64,000 bases of DNA. Origin: Desulfuromonas sp. (GTDB lineage Bacteria > Desulfobacterota > Desulfuromonadia > Desulfuromonadales > BM515). The DNA lies in contig PKUF01000121.1 of assembly GCA_002869635.1 (NCBI GenBank), positions 26,650 to 90,649 of the forward strand, in the 5' to 3' direction. A program made the position numbers and the translations under genes. The notes below the pieces were generated by a model that was given only the letters and a program-made list of their open reading frames with translations, did no database searches and was not told where the DNA came from. Shown here piece after piece: positions 55,983-63,868 of the stretch; position 1 is the stretch's first letter; each line of letters begins with the position of its first letter.

Positions 55983-56181
55983 GCCTACCCGCTCATGCCG
56001 GACTTAGAATTAAGCAACCTCTTGCTGCAGGATGGATTCAAATTGCACGTACAGCATCAAGGCACCACAGCAAAAACTTCTACGGGGCCAATAGCCAAGA
56101 AGACATTTACAGGCCCTACCGAATGTCACGTATAAGTTTTGGCTCTTTAGTACACCGCAACGACTGCCATCGGCCGACAAT

Positions 56182-56904: not shown

Positions 56905-57078
56905 TTAGCGCAACTTAACTCCTCTTGGGGGTTTGTTTTTAAAGACTTCCTTCAAACTGGTATCAGCATCCGGTAGCGACTGACTAACAGCCTCTAGAAT
57001 GTTCTTGGCTTTGCCGCGTGCAGCAGGGTCGTCATCGGCGTTAATGGTCACAGTGATCGTCAGCTTATATTCGGTCAT
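56905..57078 (-). CDS. Small hypothetical protein (57 aa; MTEYKLTITVTINADDD...)
   Basis: ORF in the low-GC segment. Weak AGGA upstream. No motif recognised. Confidence 0.3.
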   Translation of the reverse strand: MTEYKLTITVTINADDDPAARGKAKNILEAVSQSLPDADTSLKEVFKNKPPRGVKLR

Positions 57079-57173
57079 TGTTGGTTGTGATCCTGTAGAT
57101 GTGTTCAGTCGGTAGGGAGCTTGAGAATCAAGCGGACTGGTCAGCAACGCTGACAGAGCAGAGTGTCACTCAG

Positions 57174-57338
57174 TGAATGGTATGGCACTAGCCGGGAATG
57201 TGCGGGAATGGGCCGGAATGAATGGGAAGTGTCGATTTTTCATAGGATTGTGTAAGGTAGTTGTGAGGGAAAAAGGCTTCGAACGGTTTGGCTCTAAGGG
57301 AAATATATTCTGGGACGGTTTAGACTGGTTTGGCACTA
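57174..57338 (+). repeat. attL-like array: three direct copies of GGTWTGGCWCTA (putative transposase end-binding sites)
   Basis: GGTATGGCACTA at 57179-57190, GGTTTGGCTCTA at 57285-57296, GGTTTGGCACTA at 57327-57338, plus a partial GGTTTAGAC at 57317-57325. A TG dinucleotide lies at 57174-57175, 4 bp outside copy 1. Confidence 0.5.
57194..57231 (+). repeat. Four helically phased (10-bp period) GGGAATG-like repeats
   Basis: GGGAATG at 57194, GGGAATG at 57204, CGGAATG at 57214, GGGAAGTG at 57224. Confidence 0.7.
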
Positions 57339-57356
57339 ATGACGTTAGAAGGTGTA

Positions 57357-57397
57357 ACGCGGCCACCTGTCAGTTTTGAGCTGGTTGGTGACCGCGT
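57357..57397 (-). terminator. Hairpin downstream of the 144-aa ORF (candidate terminator of the repressor-helicase-ORF144 transcript)
   Basis: 11-bp stem ACGCGGCCACC (57357-57367) / GGTGACCGCGT (57387-57397), with one G-U pair on the minus-strand RNA. The U-tract is poor. Confidence 0.4.
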
Positions 57398-57407
57398 CGT
57401 TTGTTGG

Positions 57408-57842
57408 TTAAGCAACTAGCTTCAAATGGTTTGTTATGCTTTTCTGTATTTCTAAAGGTATTGACTTTACTACCTTGTCTACAAAAGATTTGTCTTTTAC
57501 AGATAAAAGCAGAATTCTCAGTTCATCAATAAGCAGATCAAGGATTTCTTGTCTGCACCATTGTTTTTTGAATTGATTCTTGCCCATTTTCTGGTCAATT
57601 CGCGTAAGGCTCCTGTCTTTAGTGTAAATGTAGCGCATCGTATATTTATAGGTTTTGTTTTCATCGTCAATGTCTGAGTAGACAATGTCTACAAATAACC
57701 TTTCTTGTTTTCTGTATGTTTCTACCTTTTCACATTCACTATTGAATGCGTTTTCAACCAATTCTGACGGCTGTACGCCAAGCTCTAGGTAGTTTGCTGT
57801 AATTGTGTTTATTAATGAGCCTATTCTTTCCTTTTTTGTCAT
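57408..57842 (-). CDS. Hypothetical 144-aa protein translationally coupled to the helicase
   Basis: ATGA overlap with the helicase stop (57839-57842). Low GC. No motif recognised. Confidence 0.7.
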   Translation of the reverse strand: MTKKERIGSLINTITANYLELGVQPSELVENAFNSECEKVETYRKQERLFVDIVYSDIDDENKTYKYTMRYIYTKDRSLTRIDQKMGKNQFKKQWCRQEILDLLIDELRILLLSVKDKSFVDKVVKSIPLEIQKSITNHLKLVA

Positions 57843-59695
57843 TGCAACATCCTCCTTATCTCTTCGATTATAGCAGAGATGTGGTCGATAGAAAGCAATA
57901 AAGATTTATTATCTCTATCTTTGACCGGCCCAAATTTGCTCAACAGCTTGAGGTTTATGTACATTACAAGAGTTCCGTCATTTGGTGTGTCTTCCTTCAG
58001 GTAACGTACCCATCGCGAAAACACTGGGGCAAGGTTGCAGTCCTTTTCACTTATGCCTAAATCAGTAAGGAGATTGGTGACGGCATCTTGTGATTTTTGT
58101 GTAAGTATCTTGCGCATCTGTATTCTCGCAAGATCTGGCCTTTTTTCGAGCAGGGTTGGGTCTATGTCCTGAGAAAGTTTTTTGGTCTCTCGTCGTGTTA
58201 ATTTTTCTCGGATGTCGATCAGGTCGTCCTCATCGAGGTTGGAGTTCTGTCGAATTTCGTTGATTTTTTGATCGACATTTTGCTGTATTTCGGTGCGTTT
58301 TTGAGCGAAGAGTTCGTTGAAGTCTAGATCTTCCAGGTAGGAGTCTGAGTCATGAATAAAGGCTCTGTCTGAACTGACGCCCGCAAGTTCTGTGGTGCGA
58401 TTTTCATAGTCAAGTTCGGTTTGTGTATACTCGCGAGTGGCAGTGTGCTTTGCTCTGTCAATTTCTTTTTGGAAGGTGGCCCACATTGAGTCAAGGCCTG
58501 TTTCGTGGTGGTAGATGACCAAGGCGTTGTTGTCAATTTCGAAGGCAGTCGTTTCTTCCTCGGGGATTGTTCTGAGCACTCTCCCAACAACTTGGGCGAA
58601 GGAGTTTAGGCTTCTGTATGGTCTGAAGATGGCCAAAATTGACAGATATGAATGGTCATATCCTTCCATTAGCATGTTTACTGAAATGACAGCTCGACAC
58701 TGATGGTTGTCTATGCATCTGAAGGCGGCATCTAGTTTATCTTGTTCCATTTCACTGTGAACAATAACTGATTCTATGCCATTTTCTTTGTAAAGTCTAA
58801 ATAAGTCAGTGGCGTGAGCAATAGAGCATCCTACTGCAAGTATTTTGTGAGGTACTTTTCTGGATATATTGTTAAGCTCATTGAGCTTATTTATGCTGTG
58901 TTCTATGACGTCTCTCGAGCACTCTTCTGATAATGCGACGCTTTTTTCAAGCCACTCCTTATCCTTCAATTGCAGAACGGCATCCTTTGTGAGTTTTTCT
59001 CCAGGACGTTCTGGCATGATAAAGAAAAGTTCATGGGCATTCACGGTCTCTTTTCTCAGCCAAGAAACGTAGCGCTCTCTCATCGCTTCTGAAAGAGGTG
59101 TTTCATGGATGTTTTCACCTGGAACTTCTTTGTTGTCGCCTCTGAATGGTGTCCCTGTAACGTGTAATTTTTTTGCGGTGTTAAAAAAAGAAAAAACCTG
59201 TTGCCAGCTTTCTGCTGGTGCGTGGTGCGCCTCGTCAACAATTATTAAATCGAAAAAATCAGGGGGGACTCTGTTGGTTAGACCTTTTTCTCTTGAACCT
59301 ATAAGTTTGTGTATATTGGAGTATATTATGTCGCTTTTATTTAGGTGGTCGTCGGATATTTCATTTCTGTATTCACATAATGTTGGAATGTCTTCAGGGT
59401 TGAAAATTACATCTTTGTCTATCCAGAAATTATCTTTAAGTGCTTCTTGAGTTTTTTGTATGCTTTTTTTTGTAACTAAGCCTGGTGTAATAATTAATAC
59501 GCGACCGTTGGCTACACTGAACGGAGCGATTGAAATCAGGCCGCTTTTCCCGGTTCCTGTTGGCAGAACAACAAGGGCTTCGCCTTGTGGGTTCTCTGAG
59601 AAATATTCTTTAATTCGTAGGTATGCTTCAATTTGAGGGGATCTAAGCTTTTTGTTTCCCTCAATATTTACAGCGGTTTTCATGAAATAAGACAC
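57839..59695 (-). CDS. SF2 DEAH-box helicase (ResIII-like N-lobe) with an unassigned C-terminal region of about 220 aa
   Basis: Motif I LPTGTGKSG, Ia LIITPG, II IIVDEAHHAP, III VTGTPFR, VI FAQVVGRVLR. GTG at 59695 with GGAGGGG 6 nt upstream. Confidence 0.85.
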   Translation of the reverse strand: MSYFMKTAVNIEGNKKLRSPQIEAYLRIKEYFSENPQGEALVVLPTGTGKSGLISIAPFSVANGRVLIITPGLVTKKSIQKTQEALKDNFWIDKDVIFNPEDIPTLCEYRNEISDDHLNKSDIIYSNIHKLIGSREKGLTNRVPPDFFDLIIVDEAHHAPAESWQQVFSFFNTAKKLHVTGTPFRGDNKEVPGENIHETPLSEAMRERYVSWLRKETVNAHELFFIMPERPGEKLTKDAVLQLKDKEWLEKSVALSEECSRDVIEHSINKLNELNNISRKVPHKILAVGCSIAHATDLFRLYKENGIESVIVHSEMEQDKLDAAFRCIDNHQCRAVISVNMLMEGYDHSYLSILAIFRPYRSLNSFAQVVGRVLRTIPEEETTAFEIDNNALVIYHHETGLDSMWATFQKEIDRAKHTATREYTQTELDYENRTTELAGVSSDRAFIHDSDSYLEDLDFNELFAQKRTEIQQNVDQKINEIRQNSNLDEDDLIDIREKLTRRETKKLSQDIDPTLLEKRPDLARIQMRKILTQKSQDAVTNLLTDLGISEKDCNLAPVFSRWVRYLKEDTPNDGTLVMYINLKLLSKFGPVKDRDNKSLLLSIDHISAIIEEIRRMLQ

Positions 59696-59732: not shown

Positions 59733-60413
59733 CTACATCCGCCCGCCGCCCCATACGACGCGGCCGATGATATTGAGTTTTTCGACCTGGTCGGCGGGCA
59801 CGGTCTGCTCGTCGTAGGCCGGGTTGTCGCTCTTGATCTTGATGCTGCCGTCGAACAGGCGCTGCAGGCGCTTAGCGACCAGCGTGCCGTCGATCTTGAT
59901 CACGTAGATCGCGTCGTCCTTTACTTCCTGCCTTGAACGATCCACCAGCAGAATCCCCCCCTCCTTGATCGTCGGCTCCATCGAATCGCCCATAGCGCTG
60001 ATCAGCGCGAGCTCGTCGCGGTTGAGGTGCATGGTGTTTTTTAGCCAGGCCGTCTTGAACGCCAGGTGATCGACGACCTGCTCGCTCTCTACTAAAGCCC
60101 CGCTGCCGCAGCTCGCCTTGACGGCATAGCGCGGGATGAAGGTGTATTCCCCGCGCATCGCCTCGCGATCGCCCGGCGCTATTGTGGTGCCGGTTTCTGC
60201 CTCTCTCGGCTCATTTCCCGTTACCAGCCACTCAAGACCTACACCAGCAACGTCGGCGATCTTCTTTAGCGCCGACATCCCCGGTTCGCTTCGACCGGAA
60301 AGGTACTGCCGGACAGCGGTCTCGGATAATTCGCACTGCAGCGCAAAAGCGCGCACACTTTTCCCCCCTATCGCTTCTTTGAGTCGATCGGTGAAAAGTT
60401 CGGAGTTCATCAT
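59733..60413 (-). CDS. Prophage repressor, CI/LexA-like (XRE HTH + S24 peptidase)
   Basis: HTH (VRAFALQCELSETAVRQYLSG). S24 catalytic GDSMEPT and VAKRL. GGAG lies 6 nt before ATG 60413. Divergent from the ner-like gene. Confidence 0.85.
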   Translation of the reverse strand: MMNSELFTDRLKEAIGGKSVRAFALQCELSETAVRQYLSGRSEPGMSALKKIADVAGVGLEWLVTGNEPREAETGTTIAPGDREAMRGEYTFIPRYAVKASCGSGALVESEQVVDHLAFKTAWLKNTMHLNRDELALISAMGDSMEPTIKEGGILLVDRSRQEVKDDAIYVIKIDGTLVAKRLQRLFDGSIKIKSDNPAYDEQTVPADQVEKLNIIGRVVWGGGRM

Positions 60414-60613: not shown

Positions 60614-60874
60614 ATGAGCGCCCATAAAAAACGGACAGAACTGAATCTTGAGGAAATTCTCGCCAACCCCGATACGCGGCGGGAATGGCTCAAATTTCAG
60701 CTGGCGCTCCATGGTTCTAGCTTCTCAGCGATTGCTAGGGAGACCGGTTTTACGCACCAAGCGATCTGCTCAATTGCAGGGCGTCGTTATGGCAACCGGC
60801 AGGTCGAAGCCCTTATCGCGCGAACAATTGGGATGGCGCCCGCACACATTTGGCCCGAGCGATACACAAAATGA
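60614..60874 (+). CDS. ner: Ner-like DNA-binding protein
   Basis: ..SFSAIARETGFTHQAICSIAGRRYGN..EALIARTIGMAPAHIWPERY parallels Mu Ner (..IWPSRY). AAGGAGG RBS. Confidence 0.75.
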   Translation: MSAHKKRTELNLEEILANPDTRREWLKFQLALHGSSFSAIARETGFTHQAICSIAGRRYGNRQVEALIARTIGMAPAHIWPERYTK

Positions 60875-60909: not shown

Positions 60910-63063
60910 ATGTCTGAGATAAAAACACACTATACTTCGCGCGAGTTGGCCACCTTACCAGGGATGCCGACAACCGAAAGGGGCGTTCAGCTCCTTGCCA
61001 CCCGCCAAAACTGGCCATGGCGCAAGCGCGCCGGGCGTGGCGGCGGCCGCGAATATCCCGTCACCGCTTTGCCCGACCAAACCCGTGAACATCTTGTTGG
61101 AACTCTCCTGCTCACGACCCGTGACGAGATAGCTACCCCCGCCGCAATCAGCAGCGTCAGCGCCGAACCGCCAGCGAGCGTGGCCGAAGTTCAGCCTCTG
61201 GCCGAACTCAAGACCTGGCAGCAGCGACGCATGGACGCCCGCCTGCAGTTCATCCGCCTCATCGAGCGCGGCGCCTGCACCATCGGCGTCAATAAGACCA
61301 TCGACACCCTCGTCGCCAAGGCCAAAGCCGGTCTGCTCCCCGACGATCTGCAGCGCCTCGTCCCCGTCGCCAATGCCCGCTCAGGTGGCGACGGCGGTCG
61401 TACCCTGTCGCGCCGCACGCTCATGCGCTGGTGGAGCGACTATAAAAAGTCCGGCGGTGACTACGCTGCCCTTGCCCCGGCCAAGGCCGAGCGCGAAGCG
61501 GTCCCGCCCTGGGCGGCTCATTTCCTCAAACTCTACCAGGTTCCGCAGAAGCCGAGCCTCGCCATGGTCGTGCGCGACCTTGCTGTCATCCTCCCCGAAG
61601 GAGTTGAGCCCCCCAGCGAAACCCAGGTGCGCAGCTTCGTCAAGAAGTACAGCCGCCTCGATATTCAGAAAGGGCGCAAGAGCGGCAGCGAGCTGCGTGG
61701 CCAGCGCCTCTTCCGCCAGCGTGACAGCTCAGGGCTCGAGCCGGGCGATATCTTTGTCTTCGACGGTCACAGCTTCAAAGCGTACGTGAGTCACCCCGCC
61801 CACGGACGTCCATTTAAGCCCGAGGTCTGCTGCGGCATCGATGTCGCCACCCGCTATGTTCCGGGCTTCTCTGTTGGCCTTGCTGAATCAACCCAGACCG
61901 TCGCCGACGCCATCCGCGCCTGCCTCACCGTTGATGAGAAAAGTCCCGTCGGCTGCATCCCTGCCATCATCTACGCCGACAACGGTGGCGGCAACACCGC
62001 CAAGGTCAACGCAGACGACATCGCTGGGCTCTACGCCCGCCTCGGTATCACCTTTAAGACCGGCATCCCAGGCAATCCCCAAGGGCGCGGTATCGTCGAG
62101 CGACTCAACGCTACCCTCTGGTTACCCGCCGCCAAGCGGCTGCCGACCTACACCGGCAAAGACATGGACAGCCTCACCGCCCGCGGTGTCTACCTCACCC
62201 TGCAGAAAGAGGTGCGCGAGGCGAAAAAGTCAGGGCTGCCCGTCAAGAGCGACCTGCTCATCGCCTGGGCCGACTTCATCGCTCTGCTCGAAGACGAAGT
62301 CAACGCCTACAACCACCGTCCTCACAGCGCCCTGCCGCGTATCGCCGATCCCGGTGACGGCCGTATGCGCCACATGACTCCGGCCGAGTGCTGGGCCAAC
62401 TGGGTCGCCAAAGGGTGGCGACCGATCCTCCCCGAGACGGCCGAGATCGACACCCTCTTCCGCCCCCATGAGCAGGTTAAATGTACCCGCGGGACCGTCC
62501 GCCTCTTCGGCAACATCTACGCCGATCCCGCCCTCAACCACTACCACGGCATGCTCCTCACCGTCGGTTATGACATCCACGACGCCAGCCGCGTCTGGGT
62601 GCGCGATGAAGAAGGTCGACTCATCGTTGTCGCCCGTCGTGACGCCAACAAGAGCGCCTGGATGCCGGTCACTGCCATGGAAAAGGCGCGCGAGCAGCGC
62701 TACCAGAACCGTATGCGTACCCTCGAACGTCAGCGCGAAGAGGTTGAACTCGAACGCGCCGGCGCCCCGCAAGAGGTCGCCTTCGAAGCGATCGAGATCA
62801 CCCCCGAGATCGAGCGCGGCAGCGAGATCGTCGCCCGCCTTGAAGCCAAGAAAAAAGAGCGCCCCATGCCTGAAAACGACTTCGAGACCGCCGAAGCATT
62901 GCAGGACGAAATATCCAGAGGATTAGAGGTCAGTCCCGACGAACAACAGTGGCTTGACGACTACAACCACTTTCTCACCACCGGCAAAAAACGCGGCCTG
63001 CACCGCTCCGGCTGGCAGCCTTACGCCGCCCGCCTCACCGGCAGAACCGCAGCGCAGAAATAA
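60910..63063 (+). CDS. Mu-like DDE transposase (MuA family)
   Basis: N-terminal winged-helix (HYTSRELA..PTTERGVQ). rve-type core with D (VFDGH), D (IYADNGG) and E (GIVERLN). Mu-transposase-like C-terminal region. Confidence 0.85.
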   Translation: MSEIKTHYTSRELATLPGMPTTERGVQLLATRQNWPWRKRAGRGGGREYPVTALPDQTREHLVGTLLLTTRDEIATPAAISSVSAEPPASVAEVQPLAELKTWQQRRMDARLQFIRLIERGACTIGVNKTIDTLVAKAKAGLLPDDLQRLVPVANARSGGDGGRTLSRRTLMRWWSDYKKSGGDYAALAPAKAEREAVPPWAAHFLKLYQVPQKPSLAMVVRDLAVILPEGVEPPSETQVRSFVKKYSRLDIQKGRKSGSELRGQRLFRQRDSSGLEPGDIFVFDGHSFKAYVSHPAHGRPFKPEVCCGIDVATRYVPGFSVGLAESTQTVADAIRACLTVDEKSPVGCIPAIIYADNGGGNTAKVNADDIAGLYARLGITFKTGIPGNPQGRGIVERLNATLWLPAAKRLPTYTGKDMDSLTARGVYLTLQKEVREAKKSGLPVKSDLLIAWADFIALLEDEVNAYNHRPHSALPRIADPGDGRMRHMTPAECWANWVAKGWRPILPETAEIDTLFRPHEQVKCTRGTVRLFGNIYADPALNHYHGMLLTVGYDIHDASRVWVRDEEGRLIVVARRDANKSAWMPVTAMEKAREQRYQNRMRTLERQREEVELERAGAPQEVAFEAIEITPEIERGSEIVARLEAKKKERPMPENDFETAEALQDEISRGLEVSPDEQQWLDDYNHFLTTGKKRGLHRSGWQPYAARLTGRTAAQK

Positions 63064-63133: not shown

Positions 63134-63868
63134 ATGAAACACCAGATGGCAATGACCAAGAACATGCGACGTTTCCTCAACGTCGTCGACGAGCTGATGA
63201 ACCGCCCTCCCGGTACTGAGGGGATGGGACTTCTCTGGGGAAAGCCGGGGCAGGGAAAATCGACCTCGGTCGCCTACGCCTGCAACGCCATGGACGGTGT
63301 CTTCGTCCGCGCCATCGGCAGCTGGACCGTCACCAGCATGCTCGGCGAGATCTCGGTCGAGCTTGGCGGCAAGCGTCAGCTGCGCCGGGCCGACATGATC
63401 CACTACATCGTCGAACAGCTCGCTGCCAACCCTCGCCCGGTCTTCATTGATGAAGCCGACTATCTTTTCCAGCAGGTGCAGATGATCGATTCCCTACGCG
63501 ACATCTACGACCTCTCGCGCGCCCCGGTGATCCTCATCGGCATGGAAGACATCGCCCGCACCCTGCAGAACAACGGTCGCTTCGCCCGCCGCATCACCCA
63601 ATGGGTCGAGTTCGAAGGGATCGACCTCGCCGACGCCCGCATTGTTGCCGATACCTGCTGCGAGGTCGGCATCGATGACGACCTGCTGCGCTACATCCAC
63701 GACGAGAGTAGCGGCAACATTGGCCGCCAGATCGTCGCCCTCACCAAGGTAGAGCGTATGGCCAAGGCCAGCGGGCTTGCCAGTGTCGGCCGCGACGACT
63801 GGGGCGACCGTACCCTCTTCTACGATCAGCCGGTCTTTAGCAGCCGCAAATCGAAGAGGGGAGAGTAG
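63134..63868 (+). CDS. MuB-like AAA+ transposition ATPase
   Basis: Walker A GKPGQGKST. Walker B VFIDEADYL. Positioned directly after the transposase, as in Mu. Confidence 0.8.
   Translation: MKHQMAMTKNMRRFLNVVDELMNRPPGTEGMGLLWGKPGQGKSTSVAYACNAMDGVFVRAIGSWTVTSMLGEISVELGGKRQLRRADMIHYIVEQLAANPRPVFIDEADYLFQQVQMIDSLRDIYDLSRAPVILIGMEDIARTLQNNGRFARRITQWVEFEGIDLADARIVADTCCEVGIDDDLLRYIHDESSGNIGRQIVALTKVERMAKASGLASVGRDDWGDRTLFYDQPVFSSRKSKRGE

Follow-up and report, generated by a model that had tools for sequence, protein, structure and literature searches.

A predicted attL of a Mu-like prophage in Desulfuromonas, its Mu-like site spacing and the cargo beside it

The ends of bacteriophage Mu start with 5'-TG, and its attL consists of a terminal MuA-binding site (L1) followed by two closely spaced sites (L2 and L3). 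The D3112-like phages of Pseudomonas carry three 22-bp putative transposase sites at each end, and their termini read 5'-TGT (Cazares et al. 2014, PMC4378225). We analyzed a 64,000-nucleotide stretch of an uncultured Desulfuromonas genome (the window) that contains a short array of direct repeats. We interpret positions 57164–57339 as the left end (attL) of a transposable, Mu-like prophage of the D3112 type, a reading to which we assign a probability of about 0.88. Directly observed are the features of the sequence and how they are conserved, as well as the register and geometry in which they occur. This interpretation sets the left boundary of the element to a single base, 57164, and thereby decides which of the neighboring genes are cargo.

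Repeat array, spacing and adjoining early region

The array consists of three exact copies of GGTWTGGCWCTA, which start at 57179, 57285 and 57327, all on the + strand, with start-to-start distances of 106 bp and 42 bp. No further copy occurs in the window. The three direct repeats of the preliminary description are present with the positions, single orientation and spacing given there, and are both exact and unique. A degenerate 12-mer allowing no mismatches has three matches in the 64 kb on both strands, which are the array copies, against a chance expectation with a mean of 0.00 and a maximum of 0 (100 dinucleotide-preserving shuffles). When two mismatches are allowed, 14 matches are found versus 9.1 expected, which is no enrichment; the signal is therefore a tight, exact, local cluster. 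The TGGC cores lie 20, 126 and 168 nucleotides from the predicted terminus, and the features are collected in Table 1.

Table 1. Features of the predicted left end and its surroundings, in window coordinates except where a relative is named
Feature	Coordinates	Strand	Remarks
Orphan 57-aa gene, host-side flank directly outside the terminus	56905..57078	-	homologue search finds only itself
Inferred left terminus, 5'-TGT	57164..57166	+	starts TGTCACTCAG...; predicted host/phage junction between 57163 and 57164
L1, terminal predicted transposase-binding site	57169..57191	+	core GGTATGGCACTA at 57179-57190
Four phased hexamers, (C/G)GGAA(T/G)	57194..57229	+	exact 10-bp intervals; offsets 31/41/51/61 from the terminus
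L2, internal predicted transposase-binding site	57275..57297	+	core GGTTTGGCTCTA at 57285-57296; 106 bp from L1
L3, internal predicted transposase-binding site	57317..57339	+	core GGTTTGGCACTA at 57327-57338; 42 bp from L2
ORF144, small partner gene of the helicase	57408..57842	-	start overlaps helicase stop by 4 nt; predicted cargo in the prophage
SF2 helicase, 618 aa, predicted cargo	57839..59695	-	ResIII + Helicase_C; begins 37 bp past the repressor stop, same strand
Prophage repressor	59733..60413	-	HTH_3 + Peptidase_S24 (Pfam); 226-aa gene call from near-identical contig L039; transcribed towards attL
Ner-like early regulator	60614..60874	+	HTH_35
MuA-like DDE transposase, 717 aa	60910..63063	+	HTH_Tnp_Mu_1, rve, Mu-transpos_C; expected binder of L1-L3
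MuB-like AAA+ target-DNA activator	63134..63868	+	AAA_22
Slot cargo, relative L003	496-2024	leftward	Bro-N protein and two small ORFs
Slot cargo, relative L004	1126-2178	leftward	DUF4124 protein and a 169-aa ORF
Slot cargo, relative L007	271-1073	leftward	179-aa protein, no assigned function
Slot cargo, relative L154	2215-2954	leftward	179-aa protein, no assigned function

The repeat search lengthens the three copies to 16 nucleotides (GAATGGTATGGCACTA, GAACGGTTTGGCTCTA and GACTGGTTTGGCACTA), and extends L2 and L3 further to a unit of 23 nucleotides (57275–57297 and 57317–57339) with 78% identity. The string GGTTTAGAC (57317–57325), which adjoins the third copy and had been described as a half-copy, is indeed present. 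Given the 23-nucleotide unit, it is not a separate element but belongs to a bipartite site of ~22 bp, as the upstream half-site of L3. Two mechanically called ORFs run across the array, one of 66 residues on the − strand (57166–57366) and one of 68 residues on the + strand (57173–57379). Neither has a family match, the + strand ORF being without a Pfam match, and they are most likely not genes. Scans for promoters and terminators gave counts at the level of shuffled sequence.

The preliminary description likened this array to the L1-L2-L3 sites of Mu. On the Mu record (NC_000929) the corresponding cores lie at 22/127/167, versus 20/126/168 in the window, and the analogy is therefore correct by measurement. 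The spacer between L1 and L2 contains four hexamers at 10-bp intervals, an arrangement that is unique in the window and for which ~7.5e-8 occurrences are expected by chance. The same 10-bp phasing is found in five relatives (L003, L004, L005, L007 and L154) and, at 33/43/53/63, in phage Mu itself. The position of the hexamers matches that of the pac site and HU-bent spacer of Mu. The spacer hexamers are a candidate pac site or bending element, and the 10-bp-phased GGGA hexamers may represent a cis element of this kind conserved from Mu to Desulfuromonas phages.

The array is located 3.7 kb upstream of a Mu-type early region in the canonical gene order and orientation. By Pfam, this region has the gene set of Mu, with a leftward repressor, ner, a DDE transposase bearing Mu-specific domains and an AAA+ B protein. 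The transposase has no Pfam match to the I-gamma end-binding subdomain of Mu. Its closest relatives in IMG/VR are 49–58% identical, among 25 in all that range from 35 to 58%; the best relative in genomes is 53% identical, and the closest ones belong to Desulfuromonadales and Geobacteraceae. Look-ups of the exact transposase and GreB proteins returned no record. L164, a near-identical contig of the same strain, carries genes for Gam, GemA, Mor, lysis functions and a Mu gp27-like protein further downstream. The public assemblies of this strain (ENA ERZ794998 and JGI 3300007102, ~5x coverage) break inside the transposase gene with a gap of ~55 bp (62330–62386), which the window sequence bridges.

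For comparison, we collected transposase relatives in IMG/VR (25 loci) and in GTDB genomes (10 loci). Eleven of these show the layout of the window, comprising eight IMG/VR contigs, a Desulfuromonadales MAG and a Geobacter MAG (33–58% transposase identity), and L017. In each, a cluster of T(A/T)TGGCA cores is found 2–3.6 kb upstream of the transposase gene, and consists of 5'-TGT, 16 nucleotides, the terminal core, GGGA-type repeats and two further cores. The distance from L1 to L2 is about 103–106 bp in those relatives where both cores were matched by the scan, and that from L2 to L3 is 39–55 bp; L2 is inverted in two relatives. The L1 of the window is homologous to that of L003 (TGTGAATTACTGACTGGTATGGCACTAG) and of other relatives. 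A scan of both strands of IMG/VR with the L1 string TGANTGGTWTGGCWCTAG gave a single real match, the left end of L003, and no right end, and a scan for TGTTACCCACTG...TGGCA likewise gave left ends only. L1 and R1 thus evidently differ outside the core.

Left terminus and right ends

The pattern TGT-N14-T[AT]TGGC has a single match in the window, at 57164. In 10 of the 11 relatives, TGT occurs in one register, exactly 16 nucleotides before TGGCA, while L017 is ambiguous by one nucleotide. When the left ends are anchored on the core, the window reads agag followed by TGTCACTCAGTGAATGGTATGGCACTAG, and the corresponding positions read aact followed by TGTGAATTACTGACTGGTATGGCACTAG in L003, acgg followed by TGTTACCCACTGAATGTATTGGCACCAG in L026, and cttc followed by TGTCAGCTACTGAATGATATGGCATTAAG in L154, the Desulfuromonadales MAG. 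The flanks upstream of TGT are mutually unrelated among the relatives, with a mean column information of 0.34 bit compared to 1.0 bit over positions 1–28. Positions 57164–57173 of the window align with conserved element sequence (TGT at 1–3, A at 5, and the block A9/C10/T11/G12), and TGTTACCCACTG is common to several relatives inserted at different places. As conservation starts at TGT and is preceded by unrelated flanks, the element therefore begins at 57164. The terminus had been placed at the TG at 57174–57175; this dinucleotide is present, but it lies inside L1, and the terminus moves by 10 bp. Our placement is based on comparison among relatives, rather than on a sequenced junction or an empty site.

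The right end of the element lies beyond the window, and the assignment of attL depends on the comparison with relatives in this respect as well. The contig with L013 as its left end has L085 as its right end, which terminates in TTAGTGCCAAATCTCCCGCAAATTTATGCCAAAAAGATCGCGCCGCAACA. This right end has two inverted cores at a distance of 22 bp and finishes with ACA, and its register is the same as that of the left end. The pairs L012/L228 and L017/L262 also have the same core at both ends, inverted at the right; in all three relatives the inverted copies at the right end finish in ACA. The pattern TGCCAWA-N15-TGCCAWA-N14-ACA matches at least 120 stretches of IMG/VR. Among the matches listed, 55 lie no more than 300 bp from the outward end of the fetched stretch; uniform placement would put 5.7% there. 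In left-end orientation, the consensus of the matches listed begins at the terminus with TGTAAcggcGCGCgcgaTTTGGCAC, continues as.g.TTtGCGcg..aTTTGGCAC, and is strongly conserved at positions that the pattern does not force. The ten bases past the terminus are random among the right-end matches listed. From the left/right pairs and the IMG/VR matches it follows that a large clade of Mu-like phages has T(A/T)TGGCA(C/G) as its conserved half-site, and that the repeats of the window are, by sequence, members of this group.

The 5-bp target duplication predicted for the element of the window is CAGAG (57159–57163). A metagenome scan for the predicted R2/R1 pair, terminus and duplication (GCCAWA-N15-17-GCCAWA-N14-ACACAGAG) gave nine matches, mostly of low complexity, and none of the nine came from sample 3300007102, which is known to hold the strain of the window. 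One of the nine, in L147 (2163–2212) from another sample, is an unrelated family-type right end, GGTGCCAAACATCATGTAAGACGGTGCCAAATTCGACGCTTCCTTACA, whose flank happens to be CAGAG; the left ends in the window and in L008 are bordered by the same pentamer. In L013 (82–90) and L085 (19075–19085), the flanks read TCCTG before TGT and CCTGT after ACA; CCTG is common to both with an offset of one base, and there is no clean 5-bp duplication. This likeness may be due to chance or to a chimeric metagenome assembly. The flanks of L017/L262, also on metagenome contigs, are AGATG and ATTGC, which do not match, and the two-ended metagenome contigs of the relatives may be chimeric.

Other routes to the right end stopped short of it. 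The next contig of the strain, reached via MuB, ends at about 85 kb in window coordinates, and the L003 contig, when followed rightwards, stops in tail-fiber genes; the tail module of L003 is not common to the capsid relatives. The right end of the D3112 record does not contain the sites, and ~100 bp are missing from it according to the literature. No empty site was found for the left junction, as all three other contigs with the 57-aa flank gene are occupied and 99.95–99.98% identical to the window. The search with the 57-aa protein found only itself, so no relative could supply an empty site.

The comparison with Mu suggests how the array would function. The three repeats would be the conserved halves of three bipartite sites of ~22 bp, with L1 at the terminus and L2 and L3 internal. 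All three would be bound by the MuA-like transposase, whose gene lies 3.7 kb to the right. By analogy with Mu, the transposase on L1 would pair with the inverted sites of the right end via an operator/enhancer region between the repressor gene and ner, and L2 and L3 would serve as accessory sites. The resulting transpososome would nick at the terminal TG/CA, at 57164 on the left side, and join the ends to target DNA that the MuB-like ATPase selects. The L1-L2 spacer with its four 10-bp-phased (C/G)GGAAT hexamers is most likely a bent architectural segment, a pac site, or both, if the parallel with Mu holds.

Cargo slot, alternative boundaries and the helicase/ORF144 cassette

In the window, 2.3 kb of cargo lie between attL and the repressor gene. 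The relatives also contain leftward cargo in this slot, which is variable and differs in each (Table 1). By its gene content, this slot behaves as a hotspot for cargo in the phage lineage. In L287, an unrelated Mu-type prophage, a helicase with 68% identity and its 144-aa partner lie between the repressor/Ner pair and the left end of that element, which is of the type of Mu proper (TGTAAACCAACAGCGCCAGAAACGAAC). No att-like site was found between 59.5 and 59.8 kb in the window. Given the lack of room for an att site at 59.7 kb, the cargo in the slot of the relatives and the L287 parallel, the helicase/ORF144 cassette is therefore cargo within the element. This agrees with its placement inside the prophage by the preliminary description and with the terminus at 57164. 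The G+C content of the cassette is 34–48%, compared to 54–67% for the phage core, which fits a recent acquisition. The cassette is probably co-transcribed with the repressor in lysogens.

Base composition and gene order would also allow the prophage to end just to the left of the repressor gene, near 59.7 kb, with the repeats and the helicase belonging to a separate island or to a regulatory array of operators or iterons. The G+C content falls from about 60% to 34–48% at this point, and the repressor gene is the leftmost gene in both Mu and D3112 (PMC5977238). However, the helicase starts within 37 bp of the repressor stop, in a region free of att-like sites, and the same repeat array is found in relatives that do not contain the helicase. 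As the array also bears the family-specific terminus and the relatives likewise hold cargo between attL and the repressor gene, we consider a boundary at 59.7 kb highly improbable. Even less credence is due to a boundary near 56.1 kb, which would turn the response-regulator, zinc-ribbon and 57-aa genes into prophage cargo. The G+C content is already low (45–47%) from 56.0 kb, and a weak L1-like string, TGTCACGTATAAGTTTTGGCTCTTTAG, is present at 56124–56150. This string, however, is 3 nucleotides out of register, lacks GGGA repeats, L2 and L3, and runs into a coding region, whereas the complete conserved attL architecture is found at 57164. It is probably a chance match, or may be a remnant of an older end. 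The low-G+C block from 56.0 to 57.16 kb, with TGTCACGTATAAGTTTTGGCTCTTTAG at its start, contains a CheY-like response-regulator gene, a zinc-ribbon ORF and the orphan 57-aa gene.

Two further alternatives accept the array as attL. One retains the TG at 57174–57175 as the terminus, from which a 5-bp duplication of CTCAG would be predicted. Mu ends begin with TG, and L003 has a TG at an equal distance from the core, but the sequence from 57164 to 57173 would then lie outside the element despite matching conserved element sequence, with TGTTACCCACTG shared by different insertions. The register TGT-N16-TGGCA also holds at the right ends, and the L1 of Mu has an internal TTGAAG at the matching place; a terminus at 57174 is thus very unlikely. 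The other alternative is that the array is attL by descent in a defective prophage, whose right end was lost or rearranged and whose sites no longer work in transposition. The failure to find a right end with a pattern that assumes an intact R1/R2 pair and a duplication is compatible with such a loss, but is equally explained by the fragmented ~5x assembly and by the assumptions built into the pattern. Moreover, L1 to L3 and the spacer repeats are in place, and the genes for the repressor, Ner, A, B, Gam, GemA, Mor, lysis and early packaging are intact. We regard a defective prophage as unlikely, while giving the idea some weight. The interpretation of the array as the left end of a Mu-like prophage, as first proposed from the window alone, is favored by the layout in the 11 relatives, the Mu-matching spacing, the adjoining Mu-type early region and the inverted motif at the right ends of relatives.

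Within the prophage bounded by this attL, the helicase and ORF144 appear as a pair that is also found elsewhere. A helicase with a partner of ~140 residues forms a conserved mobile pair in the window (57408–59695), L286 (8001–10282), L287 (8001–10294) and L289 (8001–10282). Homologues of the helicase with 60–71% identity are distributed across Vibrio, E. coli, Salmonella, Pseudomonas and Myxococcus. The E. coli homologue (62% identical) is located exactly between a P4-type integrase gene and psu, and is followed, with a 4-nucleotide overlap, by a 141-aa gene whose product is 33% identical to ORF144 (E 1e-23). In P. aeruginosa, the helicase homologue and its partner are part of a satellite-like island that also contains Ogr/Delta, AlpA and Toprim/DUF927 genes. 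One source lists ORF144 itself as a protein of a Desulfuromonas sp. MAG. Its representative homologues number 88, mostly 25–37% identical and almost all of 94–164 residues (one of 75 and one of 651 residues).

The pair fits no model of Pfam or NCBIfam and no PADLOC model at full length, and ORF144 has no family in any of the three collections. In PADLOC-DB 2.0.0, the helicase has only partial domain matches (mREase_IV, 6.5e-14, residues 139–376; PbeA; REase_I) and ORF144 matches at chance level only; the helicase also has no match in the phage genome collection. A single-sequence AlphaFold model of ORF144 (pLDDT 70) has no significant fold match in the PDB; the best (E 0.2) is a faint resemblance to dsRNA-binding domains.

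The region between int and psu is reportedly a defence hotspot of P4-like satellites, as described by Rousset et al. in 2022. The genomic contexts argue for a defence function of the pair. We tentatively propose, at somewhat less than even odds, that the helicase and ORF144 form an unnamed two-gene anti-phage defence system; separately, the GGGA hexamers are perhaps a conserved cis element. Such a candidate system would be carried in a slot expressed in lysogeny, between attL and the repressor gene, in Mu-like prophages, and in the int-psu hotspot in P4-like satellites. The conserved helicase would act as the effector or motor, and the fast-evolving partner of 140 residues would give specificity.

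Comparison with described phage ends and satellite elements

The predicted attL shares with that of Mu the 5'-TGT terminus and the arrangement of one terminal site and two internal direct repeats. The distances in Mu, counted between its CGAAA cores, are 105 bp from L1 to L2 and 40 bp from L2 to L3, and in both elements 10-bp-phased GGGA-type hexamers fill the L1-L2 spacer. The early genes are also arranged alike, with a leftward repressor followed by ner, A and B. In contrast, the site sequences are unrelated, being of the CGAAA type in Mu and T(A/T)TGGC(A/T)C in the window, and the repressor gene that is leftmost in Mu is here separated from attL by the cargo. The Mu layout is thus kept within 1–2 bp, in its terminal register, its 105-bp and 40-bp spacers and its phased hexamers, despite a wholly different site sequence. 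This suggests that the architecture of the transpososome, rather than sequence, is what is conserved.

The D3112-like Pseudomonas phages (Casadabanvirus) are the closest named relatives by transposase, with about 37% identity, the comparison having been made with D3112-type phages and not directly with MuA. The reported 5'-TGT termini and three 22-bp putative sites per end of these phages agree with the left end in the window. From position 4 of the record, the left end of D3112 reads TGTGGGGAGGTGACTGTTTTGACAC, in the register of the window, and GTGA is found at positions 10–13 in both. The reported sites of these phages, at 10/93/124 bp from the end (PMC4378225), are spaced differently from those of the window, the repressor stop of D3112 is followed by no cargo and lies just 172 bp from the end, and the host phylum differs. 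Membership in Casadabanvirus was considered and rejected, given a transposase identity of only ~37% and a Desulfuromonas host; the element is D3112-like in architecture, but we do not place it in that genus.

The TTTGGCAC family, which consists of ends of Mu-like phages in IMG/VR, has the same core type, the TGT-N16-TGGCA register and a bipartite unit of ~22 bp. The upstream half-site is (T/G)NGA in the window versus GCGC in the family, and the cores of the window read GGT(A/T)TGGC(A/T)CTA; the family consensus describes right ends, whereas the sites of the window form a left end. The P4-like satellite hotspot of E. coli has a homologue of the helicase and a 141-aa partner between the integrase gene and psu, in contrast to the pair of the window, which occupies the attL-repressor slot of a Mu-like prophage. 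This slot next to attL appears to be a cargo site, and the helicase/ORF144 pair a candidate defence cassette with a homologue in E. coli. For metagenomes, the comparison provides two end-finding patterns, TGT-N16-TGGCA for left ends and TGCCAWA-N15-TGCCAWA-N14-ACA for right ends. The attL of the window is of a kind already known, and its interest is in the conservation of the Mu geometry, the end-finding patterns and the candidate defence cassette.
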